Of a DNA stretch of 64,000 nt, positions 19,696 to 54,667 are shown one piece after another (positions within the stretch are counted from its first letter, which is position 1; every line of letters begins with the position of its first letter). Below the pieces are notes generated by a model. The model did no database searches. It was not told where the DNA came from and worked only from the letters and a program-made list of their open reading frames with translations. Made by a program: the position numbers and the translations under genes. Origin of the DNA: Candidatus Methylumidiphilus alinenensis (GTDB lineage: Bacteria; Pseudomonadota; Gammaproteobacteria; Methylococcales; Methylococcaceae); contig QJPH01000143.1 of assembly GCA_003242955.1 (NCBI GenBank), positions 15,679-79,678 on the forward strand. Direction: 5' to 3'.

Positions 19696-19758
19696 AAAAG
19701 GATTTACGCAAAAAGTTACGCAGCTAACCTCAGGGGTTGGCGTAACTGTATGATTGTG

Positions 19759-19835: not shown

Positions 19836-19848
19836 TGATGGTGACAAT

Positions 19849-36007: not shown

Positions 36008-36122
36008 TTACCGTCCATGGCCTGGATTTCGGCATCCATGCCGAAATGACGGATTTTCCGGTTTGGCTGGACTTGTGTATAACGACGAACGCTGGAGCGT
36101 GGTAACGATAAAAACTAAAGAG

Positions 36123-37684: not shown

Positions 37685-39007
37685 ATGAACTATAAATTTC
37701 CAGTGACAGTCATGATTACAGTTGATTGGGTTAAAGTCTGGTCAACTAGCCTGTTTCGCAATGCTTACACGGTTTTCCGCCAAATCAAAGAAGGCGGATT
37801 GGACTACCGGGCCATGAGCTTGGTTTATACCAGCCTGTTGGCTTTGATCCCGCTGTTGGCGGTAAGCTTTTCAATGCTCAAGGCGTTCGGGGCAGATGCT
37901 TACCTGGAACCCATCATCATGGAAATCCTCGACCCCTTAGGCGAAAAAAGGGAGCCGGTTGCCAAGTTCATACTCGATTCGGTGAGAGGATTGGATGTCG
38001 GCGTGTTGGGTTCGGTCGGATTATTGTCCCTGCTTTACACTAGCATTTCCCTGCTGGAAAAAATCGAAGATTCATTTAACTACATTTGGCGCAAGAAGCC
38101 TAAGCTTTCGCGCGGCTTGTTGCGGCGCTTCAGCGATTATCTGAGTTTTATCTTGGTTGGCCCCTTGCTGGTCTTTTCAGCCTTTGGGGGGATGAACGAG
38201 TTGTTCAACCGCATGCCCGACGCGCCCGAGGTCAAAGGTGCGGTAAGCCCACTGCTTGTGTTCGTTCAACCAATGTTGCCCAATGTGTTCATCATTGCCG
38301 CTTTCACCTTCATCTACAAATTGATACCTGACGCACGGGTCAATATCAGTTCGGCGTTGCTCGGTGGTGTATTAGCGGGATTGTCATGGAAACTGGCCGG
38401 TTGGGTTTTTGCCACGTTCATGGCCGGTTCGGCCCAGTATCATGCAGTCTATTCCACCTTTGCGATCCTGATTCTGTTTATGATTTGGGTCTATCTAAGT
38501 TGGCTGATCGTCTTATTAGGCGTACAGGTGTCTTTTTACCACCAACATCCCCGCTATTTGTCCCTGCGCCATGGTGAGGCACGCTTAAGCTCCAGGCTGT
38601 TCGAGCGCTTGGGGCTGCTCGTCATGGTATTGATCGGGCAGCGATTTTTTAGTGGCACCCCGCCTTGGACCATCGGCGAACTCTCCACCCGGTTGGAATT
38701 GCCCGAACTGTGCGTGGACGATATGCTACAAGTTTTGACGGAACGGGGCTTTATCATGGCCATCGGCGACTTGACAGAAACCATCATCCCGGCCCGCGAT
38801 TTTTCCACGATCCCCGTCTTGGACGTGTTGGACGCGCTGCGCACCGCAAGGGAAGATGATTTCCCGGCGGGTGCCGGCGGCTTGGGGGAACCCGTAGTGG
38901 ACGGCCTTTGCAACCAGTTTGACGAGGCAACCCGAGAAATCGGCGGTGACACCACGGTTCGTGATTTGGTTTTGGCATCTCAAACTTCAGTGACTGCAAA
39001 ACCATAG
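37685..39007 (+). CDS. YihY/BrkB family inner-membrane protein with a C-terminal wHTH-like extension
   Basis: Six or so hydrophobic helices follow YRAMSLVYTSLLALIPLLAV. A soluble tail of about 150 aa follows. The start is uncertain within the first 10 codons. Confidence 0.7.
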   Translation: MNYKFPVTVMITVDWVKVWSTSLFRNAYTVFRQIKEGGLDYRAMSLVYTSLLALIPLLAVSFSMLKAFGADAYLEPIIMEILDPLGEKREPVAKFILDSVRGLDVGVLGSVGLLSLLYTSISLLEKIEDSFNYIWRKKPKLSRGLLRRFSDYLSFILVGPLLVFSAFGGMNELFNRMPDAPEVKGAVSPLLVFVQPMLPNVFIIAAFTFIYKLIPDARVNISSALLGGVLAGLSWKLAGWVFATFMAGSAQYHAVYSTFAILILFMIWVYLSWLIVLLGVQVSFYHQHPRYLSLRHGEARLSSRLFERLGLLVMVLIGQRFFSGTPPWTIGELSTRLELPELCVDDMLQVLTERGFIMAIGDLTETIIPARDFSTIPVLDVLDALRTAREDDFPAGAGGLGEPVVDGLCNQFDEATREIGGDTTVRDLVLASQTSVTAKP

Positions 39008-39386: not shown

Positions 39387-41213
39387 CTACGGTTTTATAA
39401 GTAGGCGAATATCGGGATTGGCGTACATCGTATAGAGAAGTCCTAGTGGATTTCGGTGACGCTTCAACAATTCCCACTTAGCATAATATATGGCTTCACC
39501 TAGCGGGTCTCCACGCAATAGGGATTGGTAAAATATTTTAGAGAATTCGCTGGCAAATCGGTCTGGAATTCTTTCTTCCGTGCCGATGTATCCTCGGTTG
39601 TTATTTGTATTCAAAAAGAACTTAGGAAATGGGTTAGGTGCAAATGAGTCATTATCAGTGCTACCACAAGCATTGAGAAAGATGATGGGTTTGGAAGATT
39701 TGGATTTATATTCTACTCGGTTATATACAAAATGCTTTTGAAGGTCGCCGATACTTGCTTGCAATGTTGATGAAAAACACAGTTTCGATTCGTTTGAGTC
39801 AGCCGGTTCACAAACTTGGCAATGACAGACGAAGTGTTGAATTTGATCGGGACGGCTTTGCATTTCCCCGTTGAAGCGCAGGAACGGATTTTGAAGATGT
39901 TTGGCTAGATTGCCGCGAAAAACACTAGCATCCAGATATTCGCCTGGCCAAGGCCCTTCCAGTTCGAGAAATTGATCATGATCCTTAAAAAACTCCCAAT
40001 TAGATTTAGCTACATGGAGTTCCTGATGGTGGAAATACTTTAGCGGCAGAACGGGGTCATTATCCAAAATCAAATCCTCACTAACATTAGCATCGGATAG
40101 TTCACGATATACCACGCTTGAAAAGCCAGGAAAGCGGCATAAAGCTAGTCGTAATTCGTCATAATTGGCAACGGGCAACCATTCAGTATTATTAAATAAT
40201 GGTAAAAACTCGATAGGTAAAATATCATTAGATTCACCTGACATAACAATCAATGAAGGGGAATTACTGTCATGATTCCATTTTGGACAGCATCTACGAA
40301 AAGTTTTGACTACCTCAGAATCTTGACCATTAAAAAGTATCGATAGGAGTTCGTTTCCAGCGCAATTCAATTCAGACAAGGCTTTGTTTAGTTGATTAAA
40401 TTCGACCTGTAGACCTTCATTTTTCCCTATTTTGATGAGCTTGCGCAAAGCTTTTCGCAAGTTTATTAATTTTGATTTTGTTTCTGAATCATCCAATCTA
40501 TAGGGTAGACAAATTTTTTGTTTGTGAGGTCCGGTAATTAATATTTCATGTAAACTACGCTCATCAACAATATTCGAAATTCTGAGTGTACTTACCATAC
40601 TAGCCCTTTCCGGCTTTTGATCGATGTTTTGATCAAGTTCCCGGTCATTTATGGATTGTGAGGTAAGGCAGGGTAAGTTGTTGACGGTTTTAATAATCTG
40701 CTGAAAGAGTTCTAGGGCGAACTTATCGCGTGTACTTTTTGTTCTGGCATCTTGAAATGTTTTCAGATTTTTATCGGTTTTTAAATGAAAGATTTGCTGC
40801 TTTTCTAGCCCTTTCAGGTCCATGATGCCATCGAACAGAATTGGTGTTAAGGCGACAGGTATTACCCGCTTCCCTGTGTTCGGCACTGCAATGTTAATGG
40901 GGACAAAGGCTGGTAATTCGTGGTTTTCAATATACTCGCTGCCTAAAAAATTCGGACTGACCAGTAACAGACCGAAATGGCAACCAGCGACAGCCGCCTG
41001 AATCTTTTCATGCCAATCTTCTCCAGCTATAATATCCTCATCATCCCAAGCTTCAAAATTGTACTCTTTAGAAATTTTAAGACATTGCTTTAGAGGTTTA
41101 AGTAATTTTTCTTTGAGTTCTTTATCTTCATGTGAATAGGATATGAAATAACGGATTACAGTTTTATTATTACCAGGCTCTTTTAATATAAAAGTTTTCG
41201 ATGATTCATTCAT
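39387..41213 (-). CDS. TIR domain - CHAT (caspase-like protease) domain fusion protein, 608 aa
   Basis: The TIR region runs from about aa 18 to 135 (VIRYFISYSHEDKELKEKL ... LLLVSPNFLGSEYIENHELPAF, candidate catalytic Glu at E96/E99). The CHAT-like C-terminal region (about aa 320-608) has ILPIEFLPLF, a His-box QIQHFVCHC (H460/H464) and a Cys-box PIIFLNACGS (C516). Assignments are by motif only. Confidence 0.7.
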   Translation of the reverse strand: MNESSKTFILKEPGNNKTVIRYFISYSHEDKELKEKLLKPLKQCLKISKEYNFEAWDDEDIIAGEDWHEKIQAAVAGCHFGLLLVSPNFLGSEYIENHELPAFVPINIAVPNTGKRVIPVALTPILFDGIMDLKGLEKQQIFHLKTDKNLKTFQDARTKSTRDKFALELFQQIIKTVNNLPCLTSQSINDRELDQNIDQKPERASMVSTLRISNIVDERSLHEILITGPHKQKICLPYRLDDSETKSKLINLRKALRKLIKIGKNEGLQVEFNQLNKALSELNCAGNELLSILFNGQDSEVVKTFRRCCPKWNHDSNSPSLIVMSGESNDILPIEFLPLFNNTEWLPVANYDELRLALCRFPGFSSVVYRELSDANVSEDLILDNDPVLPLKYFHHQELHVAKSNWEFFKDHDQFLELEGPWPGEYLDASVFRGNLAKHLQNPFLRFNGEMQSRPDQIQHFVCHCQVCEPADSNESKLCFSSTLQASIGDLQKHFVYNRVEYKSKSSKPIIFLNACGSTDNDSFAPNPFPKFFLNTNNNRGYIGTEERIPDRFASEFSKIFYQSLLRGDPLGEAIYYAKWELLKRHRNPLGLLYTMYANPDIRLLIKP

Positions 41214-41261: not shown

Positions 41262-42812
41262 TTACAAGGCTAAGTTGACAGTCAGAGTTTGAATGAGTCG
41301 TGTACCCTGTAAAACTTGGACATAAATACGATGATTGGTAATAGAATCATCAATTGATTTCAAGGTGAAATTCAGTTCGGGGATTAAGTCATGGGCCTCT
41401 CTTTCCAGCTTTATTATCTGCCTACTAGTTGTGGCTTGTAATGTTTCAGAATACAAGAAAACAGTAAACTCAACCTCGGGAGTGTCTTGCCCGTCGCGAA
41501 CAACAATTTTCTCATAACAGGCTGAACTAGAATCAGATATATCAATGGGCTGCTCTTGAGTAAATTGAACCCGCATTGTCCATGTTTTCTCAGCACTATC
41601 AGCCTCCGAACCATTGTCAACAAAAATTTCTGCCGCAACATAGCCAGAGTAATTGCTTAGTTGAGGGCCTTGAAAATAGTCAGACAGTTGCTTTATTGAC
41701 TCTGCTTGTTGTTGAAGAATTTCGGTTAAGCGACTTTCAGAAATCATGCCTGTAGGTGTTTGACTGCCTGTATCCATGATGGCCTGTAGTTGCTTGGCAA
41801 GTTTAAATTGCTTTTCAAAGACATGCTGATAAATAGGATTTCTGATGGCACACACGCCTTGGTTATCCCGAATGCACCCTTGCAGGTAGAGGTCTCTGAT
41901 AATCTTGCTGCTTAATGAAAATGGCAGGTTAGCTCCATTGAGGATGGCTTCCAATACTTTGGTAAGGTTTGAATTCAGTTTATCAGTTCCGAAAAGATTA
42001 GATACCATGGTTTGAATATGGGTGGTACTGTCTAGGCCAACATTTTCTAAAAATTCAGAAAGTTTGTCTAACTGATCGTCTATTTCCTTGCTGTCGAGCT
42101 TGTAAAGATGATGGCAAACATATTGAACTAGATACGGATGACCTAAAGTGGTCTCATATATCTTGCTAATTTGAATTTCGGAGAATTTATCATCCGATAG
42201 ACGTGTAATGAGTCCTTGGGTTTCTGATGGAGTGAAATCTGGAAGATAGATTTTTTCTGCTATATTGAATGGAGAGATTAGGTAATTTTCTTCCATGGTC
42301 AAATCTCCTAAATCGGTTGAACCAGCAATTACAAATACATGTTTGTGCTTACTTTTGTCAACGAAACTTTCCATATAATACGCTCGTATGTGTCGCAATA
42401 ATTCAGCTGCAACTTCTCTGTTGGGGCATATTTCATCGATAAGGAATATTATTGGTTTGTTATTATGTAATAACCTAAAATAATCAATTATCCTATCTGG
42501 TGTAGTGCTGTCATAGTGATATATAAGGTGTTTGGTTTTACTCCAGAACTCATGTGTGACTTCTTTAATATCATAAAAACCACATGCTTCTAAATTGATA
42601 TGAATATATATATATTTATCAGTAAACTCACTATCTAGCGCATTAAGTAAAGTGGTTTTCCCTGTTTGCCTAGAAGCCATTATGGATATGCATGTCTTAG
42701 AATTAATATCATCATAAATCTCTTTAACTATTTTTTCTCTAGTTACCGATTTATCTTTTAATATTGGGCTTGTATACACAAATGGATTGGTGGTATTTTC
42801 TAAAGTATTCAT
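41262..42812 (-). CDS. AAA-like (ORC/Cdc6-type, Pfam AAA_35-like) P-loop ATPase with an uncharacterised C-terminal domain, 516 aa
   Basis: Walker A is IMASRQTGKTTLLNAL, Walker B is PIIFLIDEI, and the motif TTLGHPYLVQYVCHHL follows. The last ~170 aa (from about SNYSGYVAAEIFVDNG) look beta-rich with no recognisable motif. There is an 8-nt gap to the upstream gene. Confidence 0.65.
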   Translation of the reverse strand: MNTLENTTNPFVYTSPILKDKSVTREKIVKEIYDDINSKTCISIMASRQTGKTTLLNALDSEFTDKYIYIHINLEACGFYDIKEVTHEFWSKTKHLIYHYDSTTPDRIIDYFRLLHNNKPIIFLIDEICPNREVAAELLRHIRAYYMESFVDKSKHKHVFVIAGSTDLGDLTMEENYLISPFNIAEKIYLPDFTPSETQGLITRLSDDKFSEIQISKIYETTLGHPYLVQYVCHHLYKLDSKEIDDQLDKLSEFLENVGLDSTTHIQTMVSNLFGTDKLNSNLTKVLEAILNGANLPFSLSSKIIRDLYLQGCIRDNQGVCAIRNPIYQHVFEKQFKLAKQLQAIMDTGSQTPTGMISESRLTEILQQQAESIKQLSDYFQGPQLSNYSGYVAAEIFVDNGSEADSAEKTWTMRVQFTQEQPIDISDSSSACYEKIVVRDGQDTPEVEFTVFLYSETLQATTSRQIIKLEREAHDLIPELNFTLKSIDDSITNHRIYVQVLQGTRLIQTLTVNLAL

Positions 42813-42820: not shown

Positions 42821-45800
42821 CTATTTAGGGTATATTTCACTGATTCGTTCGAGTAAACTGACAGCCGTCAACTCAACTTCGATGTGTTTTCCAAGAATGA
42901 AAGGCAGGTCAGGCAGGACAAAACTATACAGAATGCTTTCCGGTTCGTGCTTGAGGATAGTTGCTAAAACTAATTTCTTCATCAGATTAGCGATTTCTTT
43001 ATCACTCAAATTAACATCATATATTTCTAGCAAACGTTGTAATTCAAAAGGTGTAAACTTATTGCCAAGTTCATATTTTTCCCTTTCATTAGCATATTTA
43101 CGAGTTATTTTACTGTAAGCTATGCGGTCAATAATAATTTTACCTAGTTTCTTATCAAAACAAGCCATCATTAAATAAAGTAATAGCTTGGATTGATCAT
43201 CCAAATTATACAAATAAACTTCAATCATATGTTCGCAAAATGTTGTAGAATTAATCACTTTGTCAATGTCATCGCGACTAATTTCCCTCACTTTGCGTAT
43301 CTTGTCAATACGAATTATTTTCGCGCAGCAAAACTGAATGAAGTTGGGATAACAAGCTGTTTTCTCGGTGATATATCTTATGTTATTTTTGTCAATAGTG
43401 AGAATGTTCTTAAAAGGTTCATCAATCAGTGCCATGGCATCTTTTTCAGCCAAAGATCCGAGTTCTAGTTTTTCCAAAAAATTAAACAACGGCGATTGGA
43501 TGTCATGCATCCGGAAGTAGAGTTCGCGGTAGCCGGCTACAACAATCTTGACTGAGGCTTCATTAATCAGTGCCCTTAAGGTTCTTGAAAATGTCTCACC
43601 CGTTGGCAGCAGATCATCCAATTCGTCGAGGAAAAGTACCAGCTTGCATTTATGGCTTTTACAGTAATCATCTACCTGGGTGATAAAATCGGCTATGGCA
43701 TTAAATGCAGTGGTTATTTCCAATTTTCGAAACAACCCCTTCCCCCATTCCAAAATATCGGAACCGTACGGGCTACAATCTAGATAGACAGTTTTGAAAT
43801 GTTTGCGTTTGTCGATCTCATCTTTGATACGCATCAATAAAGAAGTCTTGCCTATGCGTCTAGGGCCAATGATGGCATAACATTTTTTGTTGGGTTGCAG
43901 GATAGAATTTATAATAATTTGGGTTTCATTTTCTCGACCATAGAACATTTCCCTGACCGGGCCGGCAATTTGGAAAGGGGACAAGGCAACGAGATTGACC
44001 TGTCCAACCAGCAAAGACAGGAGTTCCTCATGGGGATTGTTGGCAAGAAGAATATTCTTTAAATCCTGGTAATCTAGCACGGCAGTCGAAAAGCTTAGTG
44101 ATTCATTTTTCAGCGTCGTTGTTATAAATTCTATCCTCTCTGGTGCAATAACTAGGACAATCCTCCAATTAGTCGTGGATTTAATCCAATGATTTACCGT
44201 GCTGTAGTCAGTGCCTTTCAACACAGTAACAAGTATGCAATCAAAACCATGAAATTTGATAGATGGAATTTTAATTTCAAAAACTTCCAAATGTGGTTGT
44301 AAGTTTAGAGGAACGGGTACGCGTTCTTGGAATAATACCTTGACGGTGGCGCAGAGTATTTCCAGATGGTTTTGCCTGAGCAATTCTTTTTGTTTCTGAT
44401 TGGCTTCATATTTTGAATTAAGTGCAATCGAAAGGTGGACAAGATTCGCCCACTGTTCTGGGTTTATCAAAAGAAAATCAGTTACCCAAGGTAGTTGTTT
44501 TTCTTTATTCAAGGCTACATCAATTTTACATACATCAATAAGCTTGATTGCTGCAATCAGCTCTTGCCGATGTTCAAGTGCTGTTTTGAAGACATCTTGG
44601 TGAGTTGAAATCCAGTGGGCATAACCGCTATCTTGCAACAAGTAATGGCTTTCTTTTTGTTCAACGTGGCTAACGATTAGTTTTAGAGCCTCCAAAGATT
44701 GGACACCCAGCAAGACATTGTCTTTTGGAAAAAAATGCTTGATTCTATGCAGCTTATCGTGAATGCCGGTAAGTTCAGCCCCGCCGAGGGACAGGGCTAT
44801 CAAGACCATTTTCTCCGCCAACGTATGTTTAGCCCATAATAGAGCATATCCCTTTTCCTGATTGCAAATAGTTTCCAACTCTTTAAGGTAATTTGGACTG
44901 ACCACTCGGTAGCGGTTGACAAGCCCCTGAGCGAGTGCAACGATAATTTCTTGACCCGTTCCATTATTGGCTAAACTATGCACTGCCGTAGGCATATCGG
45001 CTAAAAATAGTTCTTTGGTTTTTTCGCCTTCTAGGGATAGGAATATCAAACTACGTTGCCGTGTGCCTATGATAATTTCTTGGCTACCCTTATAAGTCTT
45101 GCCTAAAGCTATCGAAATTAGCTGCCTGTCTATGTTGTTAATGATGCAAAATCTCGACTTCTCGCCATCAGCATGGACACTGTAAATCGAATCAGGGGTT
45201 AATACATAAAAATGCGGATTGCCTTGCTCGTTTTCAATGCAGACCCAATCCAGCACATTGACGGAATCGCCTAGCTCCAACCATGGCTGCTTGAATGGGT
45301 CAGCCTGTGTTTCAGGTTGATTTAGAAAATCGTTGATATTTTGCATACGATAGATGCAACCTGTCACCGTGATGACATAAAAAGTTATTTTATCCTTAGC
45401 AACTTTTAATTCCATCTTGATAGGAATGGCTGGCAACGTAAACTCCCTACGCTGTACATTGCCAGCCTGGATAACGATGTCATTATTCACTAGCCCGCAT
45501 GCCAAATAATCTTGGCCTTGGTGGTGGAGTGCCGTTAAACAGCAAATTGCCTTGCTATAACTGGCAAAGGGTTTATCCATGTCAAGATAATCAAAAGAGT
45601 CAAGCTTAAAAACGTCTGAACCGTTTCCTATGAAATATTGTTTTTTGCTACCATGGATAAGGACGATGTGTATTTCTGTATCATTAAAATGTTTTTTATC
45701 AATTCTGCCCTTGTCTATCCTATAAAGATCACCTTCTGAACTTGCTAGTATAATCCTGTTGCCACCATCAATGGATGAGATGAACTCGATATTCTCTAGT

Positions 45801-47479
45801 CTGAGGTGTGATTCCAACAAATCCATCCCAATCAATTTTAAATTGTCTAATTGTTTGTAGGCATCGGGAAATAAACCTTCCGAAGATAATCGTTTTATGT
45901 CCTCACTACGCCGGATCGGTAAATCCTTCCAACGAATTTTCTCTTCTGTGAATTCTTTGAATTGACCTAGAAAATCATTACCACTGCCAATAACATTATT
46001 GATTTTTTCTAATTCAAAGCATATTTGCTCACAAGTAGGTAAGTTTTGATATTTTTTATATAATCTTTCAATAAATTCAAATGTGTAACGTATAAGAATT
46101 TTTTCATTTTGATATTTTTTTAATAAATAACCCAATTTTTGTAAAATTTGTAAATTAACGTCATAAACCTGCTGTTCTTCAATAGATTGTAAAAACTCCA
46201 CAACTTGATGGCAATCCATTTCCCGCTCAAGGACATCCATTCCATATCGGGCTACTGCGGGATATTTTGACTCACTGAACCAATTTAGAATCTCTTTGTT
46301 TCCATGACTTTTTTTCAAATCATTAAATGCTTGTGCAATTTTTTTATTGATGGTGGAACCTATATATATCTTGAAAACTTGCAATTTGCCATTGGCCAAC
46401 CCTGCAATAACCCGCTTCTTATCCAACTGCCTAATATTACCAGCCCACAACGCGGTTACCCGATGTTCGGTGGGATATTCCCATTTGATACGCAACTCAC
46501 GTCTGTCAGGATCAACGGCAAATACATAGATGCGGTTGCTGGCACCTCCAACTAATATTTCTAGTATGCCATCGTTGTCAATATCGTCACAATATAAGGA
46601 ATGAAACTTATCGGCACATTTGATCGAGTATTTTAATTGCGTCGTGTGTAGATCATAGATGTCCAGTTTGCCATTGGAAGCACAAGCAATAATGCTTTCG
46701 CTACCTTCATTATCGGGATCGGCTACTTGGACGCAAATATATAAGCTCGAATGGGCAAAACTTCGAGGTGTCATATTTATATACCCATGCGGATTGATGT
46801 CGTATACGATAATCCCTCCCCCATGCATAATACCTACCAGATGGGAGTCTTGTATAGTGTTTGCATCAGTAGGTGAAGGCAAGTCGTCAATTTGAAAGTG
46901 TTGGATATTTTTTAGAGTGTCTAGTTCTTGATCCGGTTTGTTAGGTGAAAAAGGGCTAAAGCGATAAATTTTATTATTCGATGCCGCCAAATATAGGTGT
47001 GAATCCTTGTAAATTATACAATAGATTTCCAAATCATCTTCTTGTTGTCTTGGTATACCAATGATTGAGCGTAAGTCAGCTGAAAGTTTATTACCTTGTC
47101 TCGAAAAATGATAAATGGCAGGCGGTGCATTCTTTTTATAAGCAACGAGCATGGCGGAATGTGTACTTGCCCCCCTGCCATATTTAAAAAAACGTAATTC
47201 TTGGAAGCCACTAGGATTGTCAAGTTGTACAATTTTTTGCAGGTTCTCACCACAGGAGTATATCTTGCATCTACCATATGTAGTGATAATGTTCACCTCT
47301 TTGGTGGTGTTGTTATCGATATCGACGGCTTCAATGGCAATAACACCCCCATGACAGTGAATTTCATCAATCAGATCAAGTTTGTGTTCTTTAACAAGTA
47401 AAAACTTCTGGATCGCTTTAAAATACTCCTGATGAGATAAATCTTCTTTCCCTGCACCAACTAAATTATGCTGTATCAT
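42821..47479 (-). CDS. Giant (~1552 aa) protein: N-terminal FG-GAP-like beta-propeller, helical linker, second propeller-like region, C-terminal P-loop ATPase plus helical/wHTH-like tail
   Basis: An FG-GAP-like blade CDDIDNDGILEILVGGASNRIYVF lies at ~46560-46600. Repeated strand patterns occur (ACASNGKLDIYDL, AGLANGKLQVFKI, LASSEGDLYRID). The ATPase lead-in is SPFQIAGPVREMFYGRENE, Walker A is YAIIGPRRIGKTSLL (Lys codon 43847-43849), and Walker B is LVLFLDELDD. I prefer ATG 47479, preceded by GGAGG, over the tracked TTG at 47494. Confidence 0.65.
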   Translation of the reverse strand: MIQHNLVGAGKEDLSHQEYFKAIQKFLLVKEHKLDLIDEIHCHGGVIAIEAVDIDNNTTKEVNIITTYGRCKIYSCGENLQKIVQLDNPSGFQELRFFKYGRGASTHSAMLVAYKKNAPPAIYHFSRQGNKLSADLRSIIGIPRQQEDDLEIYCIIYKDSHLYLAASNNKIYRFSPFSPNKPDQELDTLKNIQHFQIDDLPSPTDANTIQDSHLVGIMHGGGIIVYDINPHGYINMTPRSFAHSSLYICVQVADPDNEGSESIIACASNGKLDIYDLHTTQLKYSIKCADKFHSLYCDDIDNDGILEILVGGASNRIYVFAVDPDRRELRIKWEYPTEHRVTALWAGNIRQLDKKRVIAGLANGKLQVFKIYIGSTINKKIAQAFNDLKKSHGNKEILNWFSESKYPAVARYGMDVLEREMDCHQVVEFLQSIEEQQVYDVNLQILQKLGYLLKKYQNEKILIRYTFEFIERLYKKYQNLPTCEQICFELEKINNVIGSGNDFLGQFKEFTEEKIRWKDLPIRRSEDIKRLSSEGLFPDAYKQLDNLKLIGMDLLESHLRLENIEFISSIDGGNRIILASSEGDLYRIDKGRIDKKHFNDTEIHIVLIHGSKKQYFIGNGSDVFKLDSFDYLDMDKPFASYSKAICCLTALHHQGQDYLACGLVNNDIVIQAGNVQRREFTLPAIPIKMELKVAKDKITFYVITVTGCIYRMQNINDFLNQPETQADPFKQPWLELGDSVNVLDWVCIENEQGNPHFYVLTPDSIYSVHADGEKSRFCIINNIDRQLISIALGKTYKGSQEIIIGTRQRSLIFLSLEGEKTKELFLADMPTAVHSLANNGTGQEIIVALAQGLVNRYRVVSPNYLKELETICNQEKGYALLWAKHTLAEKMVLIALSLGGAELTGIHDKLHRIKHFFPKDNVLLGVQSLEALKLIVSHVEQKESHYLLQDSGYAHWISTHQDVFKTALEHRQELIAAIKLIDVCKIDVALNKEKQLPWVTDFLLINPEQWANLVHLSIALNSKYEANQKQKELLRQNHLEILCATVKVLFQERVPVPLNLQPHLEVFEIKIPSIKFHGFDCILVTVLKGTDYSTVNHWIKSTTNWRIVLVIAPERIEFITTTLKNESLSFSTAVLDYQDLKNILLANNPHEELLSLLVGQVNLVALSPFQIAGPVREMFYGRENETQIIINSILQPNKKCYAIIGPRRIGKTSLLMRIKDEIDKRKHFKTVYLDCSPYGSDILEWGKGLFRKLEITTAFNAIADFITQVDDYCKSHKCKLVLFLDELDDLLPTGETFSRTLRALINEASVKIVVAGYRELYFRMHDIQSPLFNFLEKLELGSLAEKDAMALIDEPFKNILTIDKNNIRYITEKTACYPNFIQFCCAKIIRIDKIRKVREISRDDIDKVINSTTFCEHMIEVYLYNLDDQSKLLLYLMMACFDKKLGKIIIDRIAYSKITRKYANEREKYELGNKFTPFELQRLLEIYDVNLSDKEIANLMKKLVLATILKHEPESILYSFVLPDLPFILGKHIEVELTAVSLLERISEIYPK

Positions 47480-47487
47480 GCGTGATG

Positions 47488-47492
47488 CCTCC
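47488..47492 (-). promoter_or_regulatory. Shine-Dalgarno (GGAGG) for the giant ATPase gene
   Basis: GGAGG on the minus strand lies 8 nt upstream of ATG 47479, inside the 21-nt gap after the GH57-like gene stop. Confidence 0.55.
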
Positions 47493-47500
47493 AAGGTTTA

Positions 47501-48859
47501 TTAGGTGTTGTTGATATTCCGAAGCTCATGGTAATCAATCGCTTGTTTGATGGAGTTTAACCAAGGCAATATTCTTTTCTTAAAATCGGAGTCTGTATTC
47601 AATTTTGCCAGGGATTTATCCAGTTCAGAATTGAGTTCTTCTTGTGTGCGCTGGTGTATCGCCCACATCAGTTGCGTGTAAATCTCTTGACCTGCTTTCA
47701 GTAGCTCATAATTATCCATTAGGGAAGCAGTCAAATACAGTGTCCGCATTTGTAAATCAATGCCCTCATAGATTCGCTCTGGATTCCAAAACCAGATCGA
47801 AGCCCAAAAGTATTGGGTTGAATAAAATGCCCGGTCCAACAAATCGCGTAGTTTATTTAATCCAGAGTGTTGTTCATCACCCTCGATATTGAAATTAATG
47901 TTTGAATTAGCATCCCATATCAGATCGGTCAGCTTCCAAAGGTTTTCATGGATAGGATTGTCTTTGGATTTCCACAAGGGGTAGTAATCTCCCCTTTTAT
48001 AGTTATCCGGCTGAGTTGCCCAAGAGCAGGGTGGAAAATACTCAAAGATTTGTCCAACTTCTTTGGGTTTTTCAATCTTGCTTAGACCTTTGATGTTGAG
48101 CAGATCGGACACCAAGCATAATTCTACAGAATCTGATTTCGATAATTTACACAGCATGTCCCTCAGAAAAGTCTCCTGATAATATTTAACATGATGACCA
48201 AAGGTTTCCCCGGATATGGCAATGATAGTGTAGCAGTCTTGCTGTTGCAGTTGAATTTCAGCCTCCATTTGTCGAACAAACTCCCGACCCGTCAGATGAT
48301 GCCCATTTTTAATACGATTGCTCCATAGTTCACTCCTCATGAACACTGCAATGTCGTTGACATGGTAAATTTCGTGTTGAGGAATCCTTATCCCATTTAT
48401 TTCCATCACGCAATCATCAATAATCGTCCATTGAAAGCCCATCTCTTGATATAAAGGTAAAAGTTTGTCGTGATAGCACATTTCAGGAGAAAAAATACCC
48501 GATGTTGTAGTAACTCCGAAATGTTCGGACTTTAAATCCTTATCTAATGCAATTTGTCGTTTGACTTCTTGGTCTGGTAACAATGGAAAGATGGGATGGT
48601 AAGCCCCGGTATGGATCATTTCTATTTTGCCGAACTTAACCGCCTGTTTAAGCCCTTCTATGACTTTGTCTTTACGGAATTCGATTAATAAGCTGGCTAA
48701 AGAATTGGCAAGGGAAACGGTGAATTTGGCATTGGGTTTGGAATTGAATAGTTCCACTAGGGGTTGGTAACACTCACGGGTCACCTCGTCGATGACTTTG
48801 TCGTTTTGTGATGAAGGTTGAAATAAATCCAGTAAAAACGCCACATACATTTTAGCCAT
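47501..48859 (-). CDS. GH57-like protein, paralogue 2 (probably non-catalytic), 452 aa
   Basis: GH57-type regions are present: GKIEMIHTGAYHPIFPLL, GIFSPEMCY and YSTQYFWASIW. However, region I is DLFQP (His replaced by Asp) and region IV is IIAISGETFGHH (the acid/base Asp replaced by Ser, codon checked in the DNA). TAATG gives a 1-nt overlap with paralogue 1. Confidence 0.65.
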   Translation of the reverse strand: MAKMYVAFLLDLFQPSSQNDKVIDEVTRECYQPLVELFNSKPNAKFTVSLANSLASLLIEFRKDKVIEGLKQAVKFGKIEMIHTGAYHPIFPLLPDQEVKRQIALDKDLKSEHFGVTTTSGIFSPEMCYHDKLLPLYQEMGFQWTIIDDCVMEINGIRIPQHEIYHVNDIAVFMRSELWSNRIKNGHHLTGREFVRQMEAEIQLQQQDCYTIIAISGETFGHHVKYYQETFLRDMLCKLSKSDSVELCLVSDLLNIKGLSKIEKPKEVGQIFEYFPPCSWATQPDNYKRGDYYPLWKSKDNPIHENLWKLTDLIWDANSNINFNIEGDEQHSGLNKLRDLLDRAFYSTQYFWASIWFWNPERIYEGIDLQMRTLYLTASLMDNYELLKAGQEIYTQLMWAIHQRTQEELNSELDKSLAKLNTDSDFKKRILPWLNSIKQAIDYHELRNINNT

Positions 48860-50049
48860 TAGCGGTTCTCCAAAAGATGTCTTTTATTCTCAATTGCGGT
48901 CACCAATTCCCTAAATAATTTCTCGCCTTTGCCAATATCATCATCATTACCGGTCATCACCCAAGCCTTTTGCAGAATGCGCATCAAATTGAATGCCCCC
49001 TTGTAAATTTCCTGTGAATTCTCAGGTTTGTCGAATTTCCAATAGTTGGCCCACCAGAACTGACAAGAGTAAAGGGCTTTGTCCATATCCCCATTCAAGT
49101 TTTTATCGTTCAAGCGTCGCACATTGTCCAGTACAAGGTCACAAAATTGCCATTGCAAGGTATGGATGGGATTTTTATGGCTTTTCCACCAAGAAAAATA
49201 ATCCCGGTTGTCAATGTCGGCACGATCTGTAGACCAGGAGCCGGGCGGGATAAACTGGGTTACCTGCTTGAAATGATGAAAGATTTCTGCCAAGTGGGCG
49301 GTTCGTATCTCATCCTTATGCTGGTCAAAAGCAGCAAACATTTCACTAAGAAACACTTCGCTATATTTATGTTGATGATGACCAAAAGTTTCCCCATCCA
49401 GCGCGATGATCAGATAGCCGTCTTGGTCCCCCATCCATTGTTTCATGGAAGCCAGCAACTCTTCGACAAATTCCTGCCCATGGACCCAGTTGTTATCGTT
49501 ATTGGCAAAGCGGTTGGACCAATGGTTGCTACGCAACAACACCCCTAATTCATCTTGGCAGTAAACGGTGTCAAACGGAACTTCGATGCCATAATAGTCC
49601 AGATTGCCATCGTCGGCGATAGTCCACTGATAACCGAGGGATTTTAGCTGGGAAGCCAGATTGCCGGTGAAGGCCAATTCAGGAGAAAAGACTCCTTGTG
49701 GATTGAATTCAGCTGTCAATAAACGCTGATTGCCTTCATGGTTTAGCCGTATCTGCCGTTCCACTTCTTCATAAGGTATCAATGGGAAGATAGGGTGGTA
49801 AGCCCCGGTTTCGGTCAACTCCAAAATTCCTTCGTCATGCGCGGCGCGGATATTCTCAAGTATCTGCGGAAATGGATCGTGGAGTAATTCGACAAGACTG
49901 TAGTTGATGTTCAAGGTGAATTTCAAGCCGCTGGCTTCCCTGATTTTACGCGTCAGCGGTTCGTAGCTCTCCCGTACAATTTTAGCCAGCATATCAAATT
50001 CTTGTACAGGTGGCTGGTAGATGTGAAACAGAAAGTTGACAAATTTCAT
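48859..50049 (-). CDS. GH57-like glycoside hydrolase, paralogue 1 (catalytic motifs intact), 396 aa
   Basis: The start is set at ATG 50049 (MKFVNFLFHIYQPP). Regions are HIYQP, GILELTETGAYHPIFPLI, GVFSPELAF (nucleophile Glu), IIALDGETFGHH (acid/base Asp) and YSCQFWWANYW. The 55 upstream codons of the tracked ORF are MITE read-through. Confidence 0.7.
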   Translation of the reverse strand: MKFVNFLFHIYQPPVQEFDMLAKIVRESYEPLTRKIREASGLKFTLNINYSLVELLHDPFPQILENIRAAHDEGILELTETGAYHPIFPLIPYEEVERQIRLNHEGNQRLLTAEFNPQGVFSPELAFTGNLASQLKSLGYQWTIADDGNLDYYGIEVPFDTVYCQDELGVLLRSNHWSNRFANNDNNWVHGQEFVEELLASMKQWMGDQDGYLIIALDGETFGHHQHKYSEVFLSEMFAAFDQHKDEIRTAHLAEIFHHFKQVTQFIPPGSWSTDRADIDNRDYFSWWKSHKNPIHTLQWQFCDLVLDNVRRLNDKNLNGDMDKALYSCQFWWANYWKFDKPENSQEIYKGAFNLMRILQKAWVMTGNDDDIGKGEKLFRELVTAIENKRHLLENR

Positions 50050-50056
50050 CAATAAT

Positions 50057-50061
50057 CTCCT
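50057..50061 (-). promoter_or_regulatory. Shine-Dalgarno (AGGAG) for the first gene of the AT-rich operon
   Basis: The minus strand reads AAAGGAGATTATTGATG, with AGGAG 7 nt upstream of ATG 50049. Confidence 0.55.
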
Positions 50062-50117
50062 TTGACTGCAATAGCTAGGTTGCCTTGGGAACAGGCTTGA
50101 TCCAGTGATTTTTACGC

Positions 50118-50196
50118 CGTCATTACAAAAGGCTTGTCGTCGCTTGAGGTTTGCCATCCCTGGACGCTGGATTCCTGCATCCATGCCGGAATGACG
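50118..50196. repeat. Degenerate family C hairpin-module element just upstream of the operon
   Basis: CGTCATTAC...CTGGATTCCTGCATCCATGCCGGAATGACG. It is related to the elements at 50363-50503 and 58498-58636. Confidence 0.6.
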
Positions 50197-50362
50197 GGCC
50201 CGGCGTAATTTCAAGCATTGCCGAGTTTGTGTGCATCACGTTTAATCGTACCCACCTTTCGCAAAAAATCCACCGGACGTACAATAGGAATATTACCATA
50301 ACTGCCAAGTGTCAACAGATCATGGTCGCCGGACACAGCAATTCTCATTTTGGCTAGAACGC

Positions 50363-50503
50363 CGTCATTCCGGCAGGGATTGCCGGAATCCAGATGCCAT
50401 GGACGGCAACTCGACGCTCGCAAGTGTTTGATTCAGGGTGTGTGCCAGCCCGCAGTTTCACATCCCTGTGGACTGGATTCCGGCAATCCCTGCCGGAATG
50501 ACG
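50363..50503. mobile_element. MITE family C (141 bp) with ~30-bp terminal inverted repeats
   Basis: CGTCATTCCGGCAGGGATTGCCGGAATCCAG ... CTGGATTCCGGCAATCCCTGCCGGAATGACG. A homologous copy lies at 58498-58636. Confidence 0.8.
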
Positions 50504-50725
50504 GACCATAGTTTAACTCTAATTTTTTATTTGGTTCAACGTTAAGGTGGTTTCCAATAAAGTTTACCCTCCTTTGGGGAAATCCCCCCTAACCCCCCTT
50601 TTGCAAAGGGGGGAGTGGTATGCTCATTTCTGGAATACACCTAATCGTGATTTTGCCTGAATGACCAACCGCACTAATTCAGGGTAAAATAAGCATTTAA
50701 GTTTACTTGACGCTACTGGAAACTC

Positions 50726-53106
50726 TTGAACAATCAAAATTATTTTGCCACGGCCCCATTGGGTTTCGAACTTTTGCTCGCCGACGAATTGCGTGGTTTG
50801 GGTGCCGATGAGGTTAAAGACGTCCGGGCGGGGGTTTCTTTCTCCGCCGACATCGAAACCGCCTACCGGGTTGTTTGTGGTCGCGGTTAGCCAATCGCGT
50901 GTTGTTAAAGCTGGCAAGCTTTCCCGCCGCCACTCCCGAGGAACTATACACCGAAGTCAGTGAAATCGACTGGGCGGTTTTGATGCTGCCTGAAGCAACG
51001 TTGGCCGTGGATTTCACCAGTTCCCGATCCCGCATCACCCACACTCAATTTGGCGCGCAAAAGGTCAAGGATGCCATCGTCGATCAGTTCCGCGAACTGT
51101 GCGGTATCCGCCCTTCGGTGCGTTTGGACCGTCCAGACATTCGGGTGAATGTTTATTTGGACAAGGACATTGCCAGCGTTGCCCTGGATATTTCCGGCGA
51201 GAGCCTGCACAAGCGCGGTTATCGGTTGGATGGCGGAATTGCCCCGCTGAAGGAAAACCTAGCCGCCGCCGTTCTGCTGCGAGCGGGTTGGCCTGATATT
51301 GCTAAAACGGGAGGCGAATTGGTCGATCCCATGTGTGGTTCTGGAACCCTGCTGATCGAAGCCGCTTGGATGTCTGCTGATATTGCGCCAGGGCTGATGC
51401 GGGATTATTTTGGCTTTCAGGGCTGGAAGCATCATCGCGCCGACTTGTGGGAATCTCTGTTAGAGGAAGCCAAAACCCGCCGCGAAGCCGGTTTGCGGAA
51501 GCTGCCGACGATCACCGGCTATGATTTTGACCGCCATGCCGTCCATGCCGCATTGGACAATATCGAGCGGGCCGGATTGCACGGATTGATCCATGTCGAA
51601 AAGCAAGAGGTCATAAACGCACGGCCTCGCAAATACGGCTATACTTCTGAATTAAGCCGTCATTCCGGCATGGATCGCCGGAATCCAGATTGCAGGGATG
51701 CCACCAATCCATGCCGGAACGACGATGGAACCCTTAATTCAACAGCAGAGACCTTAGACTCCTTCCCTTTTATAAAGGAAAAAAAGGGGGATTTTCAACC
51801 TACCGGACTGGTCGTGGTCAACCCCCCCTATGGCGAAAGGCTAGGCGAGGCGGATGAACTGGCCGGTTTGTATAGCGAACTGGGTGGTGTCCTAAGAACC
51901 CATTTCCAAGCTTGGAAAGCCAGCGTATTGACCGGCAACCCGGAACTGGCGTTCAAACTGGGGATTCGTGCGAGGAAATTCTACAAACTCTACAACGGGG
52001 CGATAGAATGCAAATTGTTCAATTTCGATATCGAACCAGAGCGATTTTTTACGCCCCACGAGGATGAAACCGGGCTTTCTGAGGAAGCCCGCAAATCCAA
52101 GCAACTGATGCGCCAAGCCCAAAGTCTGGCAAACAAGGGGGAAACCGGTTCAGGGGCGGAAATGTTTGCCAATCGTTTGCGTAAAAATGCAAAAAACTTG
52201 GGGCGGTGGGCTAGGCAAAACAACGTGTCTTGTTACCGGCTCTATGATGCCGACCTTCCCGAATATGCGGTGGCGGTGGATTTGTACCAAGGCGAGAAAA
52301 CTTGGCTGCATGTGCAGGAATACCAGGCACCGGCCATCATTGACCCCGCCAAGGCCGAGCACCGTTTGGTGGAAGCCTTGTCAGTCATGCCACAGGTGTT
52401 GGAGATTCCACAAGGACAACTATTCCTGAAAATCCGCCAGCGCCAGAGGGGCTCCGACCAATATGAGAAGCAGGCCGACGTAGGCCGATTCCATCAGGTG
52501 GACGAAGGCGTTTGCCGTTTTTGGGTCAACTTTGAAGACTATCTGGACACCGGCCTGTTTCTGGACCACCGCCCGACCCGGCTGATGATCCAGCGATTGG
52601 CCAAGGACAAGCATTTCCTCAACCTCTTTGCCTATACCGGAACGGCCACCGTCCATGCGGCTTTGGGCGGTGCCCGTTCGACGACCAGTGTGGACATGTC
52701 GCATACCTATATGGAATGGGCGCGGCGGAACTTGGAACTGAACGGCATCAAAGGTTATCATCACGAACTGATCCAGGCCGATTGCCTGGCTTGGCTGGAT
52801 GCCCAGGTAGATAAGGGTGGCAACCGGTTTGATTTGATATTCCTAGACCCGCCCACCTTCTCCAATTCCAAGCGCATGGCAGGTGCTTTTGACGCACAGC
52901 GGGATCATGTGGAAATCTTACGCAAAACCGCCAGATTGCTATCGCCCGGCGGCCTGTTAATCTTTTCCACCAATTTCCGTAAATTCAAACTCGATTATGA
53001 TGCTTTGCAAGATTTTGTGGTCGAGGACATCAGCGGCAAGACCATCCCCAAGGATTTTGAACGCAACCCGAGAATCCATTATTGTTGGACGATCAGAAAT
53101 AAATAG
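50726..53106 (+). CDS. rlmL: Bifunctional 23S rRNA (G2445-N2)/(G2069-N7) methyltransferase RlmKL, with an apparent 1-nt frameshift near 50873-50877 and an in-frame MITE-derived insert
   Basis: The tracked ORF 50875-53106 begins LWSRLANRVLL and carries NPPYGERL, YRLYDADLPEY and DPPTFSNSKR. The expected N-terminus (TTG 50726: MNNQNYFATAPLGFELLLADELRGLGADEVKDVRAGVSFSADIETAYRVV) lies in another frame and stops at TAG 50888-50890. Confidence 0.85.
51649..51740. mobile_element. Internally deleted family A MITE derivative (92 nt) inside the rlmKL reading frame
   Basis: GAATTAAGCCGTCATTCCGGCATGGATCGCCGGAATCCAGATTGCAGGGATGCCACCAATCCATGCCGGAACGAC...CTTAATTC. Its first ~65 nt are near-identical to 17066-17130. 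It is translated as ELSRHSGMDRRNPDCRDATNPCRNDDGTLNS. Confidence 0.85.
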
Positions 53107-53683: not shown

Positions 53684-53762
53684 GGAGTGCAAGCCTTGCC
53701 TTGCCTGCACACGCCATCGCAAGGCAAGCCTTGCACTCCCGCATCACTTTTAATCGCACCCC
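53684..53762. repeat. REP-like hairpin element, family F, copy 2
   Basis: GGAGTGCAAGCCTTGCCTTGC ... GCAAGGCAAGCCTTGCACTCCCGCATCACTTTTAATCGCACCCC. Compare with 2079-2157. Confidence 0.8.
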
Positions 53763-54667
53763 TAGGGGGTTGCGGCTTTTTGGCTGGTGCGCCTAGGCTG
53801 GCGGGCCAGTTCCCGCAAATGCCAAGCGTCAGGATCGACTGCGCCCTCCAAGCGAGCTTCCTCGGCATCGTCGAGTTCATGGAAAAAATCAAATCCCGTG
53901 CGCTGCTCAATTGCATCTACGCTGGTCACATAATGGTCTAGGGGTTCGTCACCGCGCACCGTTTGCGGCATCACCAACGCCAGCATCTTTTTTGCCTCCG
54001 GGGCAACGATGATTGTGTAGAATGCATCGGGAACTTCAACCCGCCAAGAGGTGTGCAAGCGCTCGACCGGCGGGTCAAAAATCGGGCCGGCCATCACCCA
54101 GATTTTTCCGAATTGCTTAGCAAAGGGGTCCAATTCCACCTCTTCCAACCGTTCCCAAAGTTTGTTGCTTAGACCGGCCTTTTGCGGCACGGCGTTGGTC
54201 ATGCGCAAGGCATCCTTTTGCCCTTGCTTGCCGTAAATCAAGCCCATGGCATGAAAGGGTGCCAAATGACCAATTTCGTAACCGCTGCCGTTATAATGCT
54301 GCGGGGCTACACGGTTGATACCCCGCCAGTCAGACTTGAATTCTTCGGGCGACATCAGACTGGTTGCACCTTGTGGAGAGGGCATGAGCGCATAAGTGAC
54401 CCAAAGCGGATTTCCTCTCAGGTCAGAATATCCCAAGATAAACCCTTGGTTGCGCAAAGTACGGGCCCAAGTAAAGGGGTTCATCCTGTCCATGGGTTTG
54501 GGTTCCCCCATCCAGAACATAGGTGGGCGGGCGACATGGACCTCGAAAGCGTACCAAGCCCCAATCAGCAGACTGAGCGCCAACCAGGCACTAAAAGGCA
54601 TTAAGCCGCCTAAACGAAGAGCAAAAACAAGCATTGTCCAAATAGACAGGCGCCGTGATTTTTGCAC
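53762..54667 (-). CDS. DNA/RNA non-specific endonuclease family protein (membrane-anchored)
   Basis: N-terminal TM segment. The beta-beta-alpha-Me region is SGYEIGHLAPFHAM (a variant of DRGHLxP) followed by NAVPQ. Its 3' end abuts repeat F, so the exact C-terminus is uncertain. Confidence 0.6.
   Translation of the reverse strand: MQKSRRLSIWTMLVFALRLGGLMPFSAWLALSLLIGAWYAFEVHVARPPMFWMGEPKPMDRMNPFTWARTLRNQGFILGYSDLRGNPLWVTYALMPSPQGATSLMSPEEFKSDWRGINRVAPQHYNGSGYEIGHLAPFHAMGLIYGKQGQKDALRMTNAVPQKAGLSNKLWERLEEVELDPFAKQFGKIWVMAGPIFDPPVERLHTSWRVEVPDAFYTIIVAPEAKKMLALVMPQTVRGDEPLDHYVTSVDAIEQRTGFDFFHELDDAEEARLEGAVDPDAWHLRELARQPRRTSQKAATP

Follow-up and report, generated by a model that had tools for sequence, protein, structure and literature searches.

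A tandem pair of glycoside hydrolase family 57 (GH57) genes lies within a 64,000-nucleotide stretch of the genome of Candidatus Methylumidiphilus alinenensis (GenBank assembly GCA_003242955.1, contig QJPH01000143.1, positions 15,679 to 79,678; this whole stretch is referred to here as the window). The first gene, GH57-A (A), encodes a protein with both catalytic residues of the family, and the second, GH57-B (B), encodes a homologue that has lost one of them. Comparative evidence supports the view that the pair is an integral and conserved part of a rare, horizontally transferred ATPase/CHAT(/TIR) cassette, which in the window continues with a giant protein bearing a P-loop nucleoside triphosphatase (NTPase) domain, a second NTPase and a TIR-CHAT protein. 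As to what the pair does there, we lean, with slightly less than even confidence, towards a glycan-handling module that is coupled to the giant NTPase and in which B would serve as a non-catalytic binder.

Catalytic residues and conservation of the GH57 pair

Both proteins belong to GH57, as a preliminary description of the locus had proposed in calling them tandem GH57-like paralogues. They match Pfam PF03065 with 99.2 bits (A) and 112.2 bits (B) against a gathering cut-off of 21.2, and are 32% identical to each other (E 1e-72). Profile searches link them to the solved structures 1K1W, 7E1Y, 2B5D, 3N8T, 5WU7 and 1UFA. The best solved relative of A, and likewise of B, is the T. litoralis 4-alpha-glucanotransferase 1K1W, which we used as the reference for residue positions (nucleophile Glu123, acid/base Asp214, and region I H11-N-H13-Q-P).

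A carries the motifs FHIYQP, SPELAF with Glu124 (codon 49680-49678) and ALDGETFG with Asp218 (GAT, 49398-49396). The corresponding motifs of B are LDLFQP, SPEMCY with Glu126 (codon 48484-48482) and AISGETFG with Ser216 (TCC, 48214-48212). In the alignment to 1K1W, A Glu124 and B Glu126 both lie opposite Glu123, and A Asp218 lies opposite Asp214, so the nucleophile and acid/base contexts assigned to A in the preliminary description hold. Its statement that B lacks the region I histidine and the acid/base aspartate holds as well. A His9 corresponds to Asp11 in B, and 36 of the 38 B orthologues have Asp, Asn or Glu there. At the acid/base position, these orthologues carry Ser (19), Ala (10), Thr, Pro, Gly or Cys (two each) or Asn (one), and none carries Asp, so the acid/base loss is ancient and family-wide. 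Since at least two base changes separate an aspartate codon (GAY) from TCC, Ser216 is not a single-base error. The 45 A orthologues, by comparison, have invariant H9, Y11, Q12, P13 and E220, and E124 and D218 are each present in 44.

The further claim that A keeps region I stood only in part. HIYQP is present, and profile alignments to 1K1W and 3N8T place its H9 opposite His11, but the canonical conserved region (CR) 1 histidine, His13, is Tyr in A and Phe in B. H-x-Y-Q-P is invariant among the A orthologues and is also the rule in single-copy relatives with complete dyads, and we therefore consider it a trait of the ~390-aa subfamily to which these proteins belong. We had entertained HxYQP as a sign of partial loss of function in A, and rejected this because all of the full-dyad single-copy relatives carry it. 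The canonical region 1 position in any case varies across GH57, with Glu or Gln in alpha-amylases and His in most others (PMC6037648). In addition to Tyr/Phe at CR position 1, the fingerprint of A and B has an aromatic residue at position 12 and Thr at position 23, as in alpha-amylases. At positions 35-36, the profile alignments tentatively give WW for A and FW for B in place of YY. On these positions, the subfamily of A and B fits none of the described specificities. Among the curated metabolic equivalogs of NCBIfam, A has no match and B reaches 15 bits to branchenz_Thermus, against a cut-off of 920. The NCBIfam matches of B to TIGR00375 and to the branching enzyme were dismissed as far below threshold, as was a PADLOC match of A (PDC-M21C, E 0.0012).

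A is presumably a retaining alpha-glycosidase or transglycosylase. B, with Ser216 in the window and no Asp at the proton-donor position of any orthologue, is a GH57 homologue and not a canonical GH57 enzyme. Conservation elsewhere in the protein is extensive. B retains 37 of the 61 positions that are conserved in A and the single-copy relatives. It keeps the nucleophile E126 (37 of 38 orthologues), the second active-site glutamate E218 and the subsequent F-G (38 of 38 each) and an HH pair (36 of 38). It also has residues of its own, with S49 and D106 invariant and F142 nearly so (37 of 38). The ratio of nonsynonymous to synonymous substitution rates (dN/dS) against the nearest allele is 0.14, indicating purifying selection. 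An AlphaFold2 (AF2) model of B is of high quality (predicted local distance difference test score, pLDDT, 90.2; predicted template modelling score, pTM, 0.86), and its best 25 matches in the PDB are all GH57 proteins (template modelling score ~0.6), followed by GH38. Given the 32% identity to B and the profile alignments, A probably has the same (beta/alpha)7 barrel and helical bundle. The last ~44 aa of B in the window (47501-47635) are a lineage-specific read-through extension, in which GAA replaces the TAA stop of a relative; the homologous DNA of that relative is non-coding, and the extension is predicted, with low confidence, to be helical. Taken together, B is not decaying, and ranks as a conserved pseudo-enzyme, one of the homologues known within GH57 as 'like' proteins (PMC6037648).

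Could B nevertheless be active, through an unconventional acid/base or on substrates with a good leaving group (sugar phosphates or sugar nucleotides, for instance)? The pair would in that case comprise two enzymes of different specificity. The retained nucleophile, second glutamate and HH motif would suit such an enzyme, as would the invariant and near-invariant residues specific to B, and retaining glycosidases that lack an acid/base can turn over activated substrates. However, the acid/base position drifts among orthologues without settling on a single alternative, and the equivalent of His9 drifts too, a pattern typical of relaxed, non-catalytic positions. Moreover, such substitutions are held to make it very unlikely that a GH57 'like' protein can act as a typical GH57 enzyme (PMC6037648). 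We consider an active B distinctly improbable.

Linkage of the pair to the NTPase cassette

Loci were fetched by exact protein look-up and by B-alignment scans of genome and metagenome collections, and the proteins of the window were mapped onto them by tblastn. Linkage was counted over the 15 distinct loci with at least 1 kb of sequence after B. Homologue searches place A- and B-type proteins on the same contigs, and an orthologue of the giant protein directly follows A-B in 12 of the 15 loci (the window, a near relative, L001, L003, L008, L010, L011, L012, L013, L014, L016 and L021). L022 has a weak giant match after B that is possibly degraded, and tblastn finds only an 88-aa remnant of the giant N-terminus after B in L032. 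With the giant as query, all six full-length homologues lie on contigs that match pair-bearing contigs exactly in length; one further match, P0178, covers 9% of the query and has no pair nearby. The preliminary description had suggested looking for homologous pairs beside ATPase genes elsewhere, and this co-occurrence is thus the common arrangement.

Beyond the giant, the cassette is more fluid. An AAA_35 orthologue comes next in L001, L008, L010, L011, L012, L013 and L021, and is accompanied by CHAT in all of these except L010, where an unknown 231-aa protein is found with it. L003 has a convergent HD-CE-AAA_35 protein instead of AAA_35 and CHAT, and the high-GC loci L013 and L021 have an extra clostripain-type Peptidase_C11 gene after CHAT (18849-20204 and 15203-16678, respectively). 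The effector end therefore ranges from TIR-CHAT through CHAT and CHAT plus Peptidase_C11 to HD-CE-AAA_35. Identities to the window proteins are highest for A (46-60%) and B (41-58%), and lie at 29-36% for AAA_35, 27-34% for CHAT and 24-39% for the giant. Conservation within the cassette thus peaks in the GH57 pair, and it is the 3' effector end that varies. In L012, an ISL3 transposase (16169-17470) sits between the giant and AAA_35 genes, and B is seemingly frameshifted.

The coupling between neighbouring genes is close. A and B overlap by 1 nt in L032, as they do in the window, and in L001, L003 and L008 there is a 4-nt overlap of the B stop with the giant start. In L011, a Ca. Anammoxibacter metagenome-assembled genome (MAG; JAIQZQ010000108.1, 5485-11355), B and the giant form one uninterrupted open reading frame (ORF) of 1956 aa. 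The fused protein was recovered independently as P0179 in an exhaustive hidden Markov model search and has Pro at its acid/base position.

The hosts include Ca. Anammoxibacter (Planctomycetota), uncultured Gammaproteobacteria and Ca. Kentrum, and the guanine-plus-cytosine (G+C) content of the loci is 34-67%. The pair is rare. A B-alignment scan of 185,579 species-representative genomes found 3 loci, and a scan of a genome collection with the single B protein found no match. Full-length B falls into only two 50%-identity clusters among 1.84 billion representatives. There was also no match among viral contigs, and hence no sign there of a phage-borne pair.

A neighbour-joining tree was built from 45 A proteins, 38 B proteins, 64 single-copy relatives and 5 more distant sequences, and a 59-taxon subset was bootstrapped. 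A is monophyletic in 100 of 100 replicates, as is B, and the two form a common clade in 85 of 100; the stem of B is more than twice as long as that of A. Outside the A+B clade fall the single-copy relatives, which share ~40% identity with A and belong to Riflebacteria, Ozemobacter, Wallbacteria, Aegiribacteria and Fermentibacteria. They occur in housekeeping neighbourhoods with no such cassette. Comparison with ordinary GH57 genes had been proposed in the preliminary description, and the pair does not cluster with them.

In two loci of the Aegiribacteria/Fermentibacteria type (L027, 2745-11239; L028, 2857-11190), a single-copy GH57 gene with a full dyad lies in a conserved block that encodes, in order, STAS, an anti-sigma-type kinase, nSTAND3-HEAT-SpoIIE, an S-adenosylmethionine (SAM) hydroxide adenosyltransferase, GH57, an NTP-transferase and an APH-type kinase. 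This block may hint at an older link between the GH57 subfamily and STAND-type regulators.

These results bear on the simplest account of the pair, offered as one option in the preliminary description, in which ordinary glycogen-metabolism genes were transferred along with the ATPase, TIR and CHAT genes as co-acquired cargo. GH57 is a mostly metabolic family, and the faint NCBIfam similarity of B to branching enzymes points the same way. Against this stand the gene order conserved in 12-14 of the 15 loci, across phyla and across the whole range of G+C content, the overlapping reading frames and the fusion locus, and the lack of any curated metabolic equivalog. As the pair forms its own clade, separate from the single-copy genes, and its linkage is conserved, we reject hitch-hiking cargo, which we regard as very improbable indeed.

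In the window, the five-gene cassette occupies 10.7 kb of the minus strand, from 50049 to 39387, with its genes tightly packed (Table 1). A starts at ATG 50049, preceded by AAAGGAG, and stops at TAA 48859-48861; a longer ORF call from TTG-50214 would add 55 aa that are found in no orthologue. B extends from its ATG at 48859 to TAA 47501-47503, so that the A stop and B start share a TAATG junction. The giant starts at ATG 47479 with GGAGG before it. Gaps of 8 nt and 48 nt separate the giant from AAA_35 and AAA_35 from TIR-CHAT, respectively. The 1-nt A/B overlap and the 21-nt distance to the giant ATPase gene given in the preliminary description both read directly from the sequence. A scan of the minus strand for terminator-like hairpins found none at the first three junctions (A/B, B/giant and giant/AAA_35), the second of which (47501/47479) had been singled out beforehand as a possible terminator site, and one weak match between the AAA_35 and TIR-CHAT genes. 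The cassette is a low-GC island (36-43% G+C, versus ~52% for the chromosome), and is present at the same site in a related metagenomic contig.

Table 1. Coordinates in the window of the cassette genes and of the features that adjoin them
Feature	Position	Strand	Description
GH57-A	48859..50049	minus	396 aa; full catalytic dyad
GH57-B	47501..48859	minus	452 aa; acid/base replaced by Ser
B/giant spacer	47480..47500	minus	21 nt; Shine-Dalgarno GGAGG
Giant protein	42821..47479	minus	1552 aa; two beta-propellers + P-loop NTPase
AAA_35 NTPase	41262..42812	minus	516 aa; second NTPase
TIR-CHAT	39387..41213	minus	608 aa; TIR fused to CHAT caspase-like protease
Intergenic region rlmKL/GH57-A	50050..50874		presumed promoter region; palindromes resembling miniature inverted-repeat transposable elements or repetitive extragenic palindromes (MITE/REP-like)
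rlmKL	50875-53106		housekeeping (Pfam); bounds cassette on GH57-A side
brkB/yihY	37685-39007		bounds cassette on TIR-CHAT side

The domains of the giant are a first beta-propeller (~aa 40-371), a helical linker (~375-548), a second beta-propeller (~564-860), a helical/winged-helix region and, at aa ~1179-1351, a P-loop NTPase whose Walker A and B motifs read GPRRIGKTS (Lys1211) and LFLDELDD, respectively. Its Pfam matches are AAA_22, AAA_35, ATPase_2, AAA_16 and Beta-prop_BBS7, with nSTAND1 also found in orthologues, and in the PDB it has a weak match to Cdc6. Secondary structure was taken from an AF2 model of the N-terminus (residues 1-1150) that is of low confidence (pLDDT 65, pTM 0.37). A Foldseek search with this region returned only generic tandem WD-type propellers (Utp21, DDB1 and IFT-A), which supports the predicted presence of two propellers and nothing more specific. 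The second NTPase has an AAA_35 domain (aa 23-333; Pfam PF14516, 69.5 bits) with Walker A SRQTGKTT, and an uncharacterised C-terminal region of ~180 aa. Walker motifs are intact in both NTPases.

In the TIR-CHAT protein, the TIR domain (aa 23-124) is recognised by Pfam TIR_2 (51.5 bits), by TIR structures in the PDB and by the ThsB-like TIR model of PADLOC (3.7e-10). The CHAT domain (aa ~456-587) scores 20.4 bits, which is below the gathering score, and has the motifs HFVCH and LNAC, with Cys516. N514-A515-C516 is invariant in an alignment of six CHAT orthologues, and the TIR part occurs in that of the window and is absent from the other five. TIR is therefore an N-terminal addition to CHAT that is confined to the window lineage. 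The preliminary description placed the pair at the head of a TIR/CHAT/ATPase operon. Its ATPase and CHAT parts stand, and TIR does not belong to the general arrangement. The idea that the pair processes ribose-ribose glycosidic TIR products of the gcADPR type was rejected for the same reason.

Several other features of the window deserve mention. A perfect 32-nt inverted repeat lies upstream of A (50362-50393/50473-50504, within 50149-50507), with related copies at 50149-50200, and the TTG-50214 ORF call crosses one of these MITE/REP-like palindromes. Across brkB from the cassette, low-GC DNA contains a PD-(D/E)XK transposase-like gene (PDDEXK_2 + DUF4351; 35844-37031), and across rlmKL there is a gene for a non-specific DNA/RNA endonuclease (53762-54667). 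A type I restriction-modification system lies in the interval 10194-19835. It consists of hsdR (10194-13394), hsdS (14584-15912) and hsdM (17257-19485), with a Fic/DOC gene between hsdR and hsdS (fic, 13454-14587), and adjoins tRNA-Pro (19759-19835).

Possible roles of the pair

We infer that the cassette is an NTPase/caspase-type conflict system of the defence type. The reasons are its island character and patchy distribution, its mobile-element and defence neighbours, the presence of TIR and CHAT, the intact Walker motifs and the swapped effector end. Genes near other pair loci include integrases, transposases, conjugation genes, Kiwa and other STAND genes. In L006 (5317-14893), the pair lies 2 kb downstream of a bona fide Kiwa (KwaA/KwaB) and is convergent with a gene for a 1207-aa Metallophos-NACHT-FGE-sulfatase protein. 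L032 (3780-12862; also L033 and L034) has the context of a conjugative element, with TraK/TraE/TraL/TraG-like genes, and there a Metallophos gene and an nSTAND1-WD40 STAND gene precede the nearest non-self homologues of A (67%) and B (62-64%). We had taken this arrangement for a second, independent STAND partner of the pair, and withdrew this because the giant remnant stands directly after B. L032 is a truncated canonical cassette on a mobile element, beside another STAND system.

Must a cassette of this kind serve defence? It could instead be a carbon-status or developmental cell-death or signalling device, in which no invader takes part and the pair makes NTPase-controlled proteolysis respond to the state of the glycogen or alpha-glucan pool. 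The name of the CHAT proteases goes back to HetF, which acts in cyanobacterial development, and no phage phenotype is known for the cassette. GH57 proteins are classically enzymes of glycogen and starch (PMC6037648), and the single-copy relatives lie in sugar-salvage-like neighbourhoods, those of Aegiribacteria and Fermentibacteria beside the partner-switching nSTAND3-SpoIIE regulator. The patchy distribution across phyla, the low-GC island and the mobile and defence genes around other loci argue otherwise, as does the swapping of the effector end, TIR and HD-CE included. A core physiological regulator would also not be expected to be so rare among the species-representative genomes. A non-defence device thus seems quite unlikely to us.

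Within a defence-type cassette, the glycan-handling module that we favour might work as follows. B would be unable to perform classical general acid/base catalysis and would act as a non-catalytic, lectin-like subunit, probably pairing with A and docking on the N-terminal side of the giant NTPase. The A-B module would report, make or remove an alpha-glycoside ligand (an alpha-glucan, an oligosaccharide or a glycosylated invader molecule), the state of which would gate assembly of the NTPases. The NTPases would then switch on the CHAT protease, together with the TIR NADase in the window lineage, leading to cell arrest or death. In this scheme, the contacts of B with A and with the NTPase are conjectural, as are ligand binding, the direction in which the signal would run and the defence function. 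A sensing or regulatory role is preferred over an effector role because the pair is constant while the effectors vary, because it is coupled to the NTPase and in one locus fused to it, because B keeps binding-type residues while its catalytic ones are lost, and because the B allele is mosaic.

The mosaic (47447-48790 of the window) is seen when the window is compared with its nearest relative (L031 and the 17.4-kb contig of P0002/P0170/P0322). The proteins are 94% identical for A and 88-90% for the giant, and only 79-80% for B. DNA identity drops from 100% over the A/B junction to 71-89% within B, and is back at 90-100% in the giant gene. The synonymous divergence (dS) is 0.86 for B, versus 0.12 for the giant N-terminus. 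A third B allele, P0011, is known at 88% identity. This uneven divergence indicates that the B allele was swapped by recombination, and allele replacement is often seen for specificity determinants. In the gene table of the 17.4-kb contig, A is called as 365 aa from the equivalent of residue 32 and so would be without HIYQP, through either a 5' truncation or a mis-call.

Several points count against a sensing module. A is the most conserved gene of the cassette, and its catalytic residues are strictly conserved. Such constancy suits an enzyme with an unchanging host substrate, in an effector or housekeeping-like activity, no less than it suits a sensor. The two beta-propellers of the giant could be the sensor by themselves. 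In L006, the sole locus of the 15 in which the pair occurs without the giant, the pair may act autonomously. The B-giant fusion is seen in one MAG and could reflect a sequencing or assembly error that removed a stop, and the argument from allele replacement is one pairwise comparison that includes the short metagenomic contig L031. No PADLOC model recognises the system, its P-loop matches there being weak and generic (TnsC, PDC-S27 and mad8; E 4e-6 or weaker).

Some of the same observations would suit an effector module, in which A is an additional metabolic effector that degrades or remodels glycogen or maltodextrin or strips alpha-glucose from modified phage DNA, and B is an inactive, regulatory keeper until the NTPases or the protease fire. 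Strict conservation of the A dyad, and the standing of A and B as the most conserved genes of the cassette, are expected for enzymes with an invariant substrate. The extreme N-terminus, where B is fused in L011, is the position of the effector in classical STAND proteins. The pair also persists without an intact giant in L006 and L032, and recurrently acquired nuclease-protease pairs (PMC12799240) provide a precedent. However, a canonical effector is present in every cassette, be it CHAT (alone or with TIR or C11) or HD-CE, and this effector end varies, whereas A-B never does. It is also not obvious how hydrolysing alpha-glucans would halt a phage or be lethal to a cell, and no protease lies near the pair in L006. 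We consider an effector role rather unlikely yet plausible, and the main rival to the sensing module; were it true, alpha-glucan metabolism would emerge as a target of abortive infection.

A sharper version of the sensing module can be imagined, in which the acid/base-less B is an intracellular glycan receptor that licenses a STAND-like NTPase, recognising either an alpha-glycosylated invader (for example, glucosylated phage DNA) or an oligosaccharide that A makes or destroys. We think this version unlikely as it stands. If true, prokaryotic immunity would gain its first carbohydrate-based trigger or second messenger, and a pseudo-glycosidase would serve as the pattern-recognition subunit. As far as is known, bacterial immune cassettes respond to proteins, nucleic acids or nucleotides, and none is known to have a glycoside hydrolase and its pseudo-enzyme paralogue as a fixed core. 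More generally, a pair that senses or processes a sugar ligand would mean that NLR-like NTPases can answer to a class of trigger or signal not seen before, and would be a natural case of a glycosidase turned receptor. Eukaryotes offer a parallel in their lectin-based cytosolic sensing. Specialists would find a fixed enzyme/pseudo-enzyme glycosidase module surprising in an NLR-like cassette.

Comparison with known systems

We found no publication that links GH57 to NTPase, CHAT or TIR systems, and GH57 is absent from the main text of PMC7159879 and PMC8195603. The preliminary description held that an active enzyme paired with a pseudo-enzyme in such a setting had not been described, and this is upheld for the genomic context. 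It is not upheld for pseudo-enzymes as such, as GH57 'like' proteins with incomplete catalytic machinery are well known and include alpha-amylase-like, 4-alpha-glucanotransferase-like and branching-enzyme-like groups (Janecek & Blesak 2011; Martinovicova & Janecek 2018, PMC6037648). B similarly keeps the fold and most of the conserved regions, with one residue of the catalytic dyad missing. The known groups are sequence-based divisions within CAZy, with no link to an NTPase/protease cassette mentioned in PMC6037648, whereas B is the obligate tandem partner of an intact paralogue. What is new is thus the context and not the pseudo-enzyme itself, and B is a new group of GH57 'like' proteins.

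Among immune systems, the nearest parallels are the STAND/NLR-like antiviral NTPases (Avs, bNACHT and nSTAND; PMC13581612, PMC7159879). The cassette resembles them in its large P-loop NTPase with propellers or repeats, its island location and its caspase-like and TIR effectors, and would share their presumed logic, from sensor through NTPase oligomerisation to effector. The giant qualifies as a STAND/ORC-Cdc6-like P-loop protein with Walker A and B. However, its domains run in the opposite order, from N-terminal propellers to a C-terminal NTPase, and it falls outside the definition of a single polypeptide running from effector to NTPase to sensor. The cassette also differs in having a separate effector gene, a second NTPase of the AAA_35 family and an obligatory GH57 pair.

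In type IV Thoeris, a TIR-derived signal activates a caspase-like protease (bioRxiv 10.1101/2024.10.24.620036), and TIR and a caspase-family protease are likewise found in one module in the window. Here, however, TIR is fused to CHAT in the window lineage only, and there is neither ThsA nor a separate ThsB-type sensor. The conserved partners are instead two NTPases and two GH57 proteins.

The conflict systems of multicellular bacteria described by Kaur, Burroughs, Iyer and Aravind (PMC7159879, PMC8195603) resemble the cassette in being NTPase-regulated and in having caspase-type proteases and dead copies of enzymes. Lectin-like domains such as NPCBM and FGS have been proposed there in silico as intracellular sensors of glycosylated invader molecules (PMC8195603); the proposal does not extend to pseudo-enzymes derived from a glycosidase. 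The glycan part of the cassette is an enzyme and pseudo-enzyme pair, not a carbohydrate-binding module, and none of the five cassette proteins matches the MoxR, vWA or GTPase families of the vWA-MoxR/GTPase ternary systems (PMC7159879).

Compact two-gene modules within larger immune cassettes offer a final comparison. Nuclease-protease pairs have been acquired recurrently by immune systems, with one partner activating the other (PMC12799240), and a trypsin-MBL module has a similar form (bioRxiv 10.1101/2025.09.03.673762). The GH57 pair is likewise a compact module of two genes. Those pairs hop between unrelated systems, whereas the GH57 pair is almost always found with one NTPase family (even L032, seemingly an exception, retains the giant remnant), and its chemistry would concern glycosides rather than nucleic acids.

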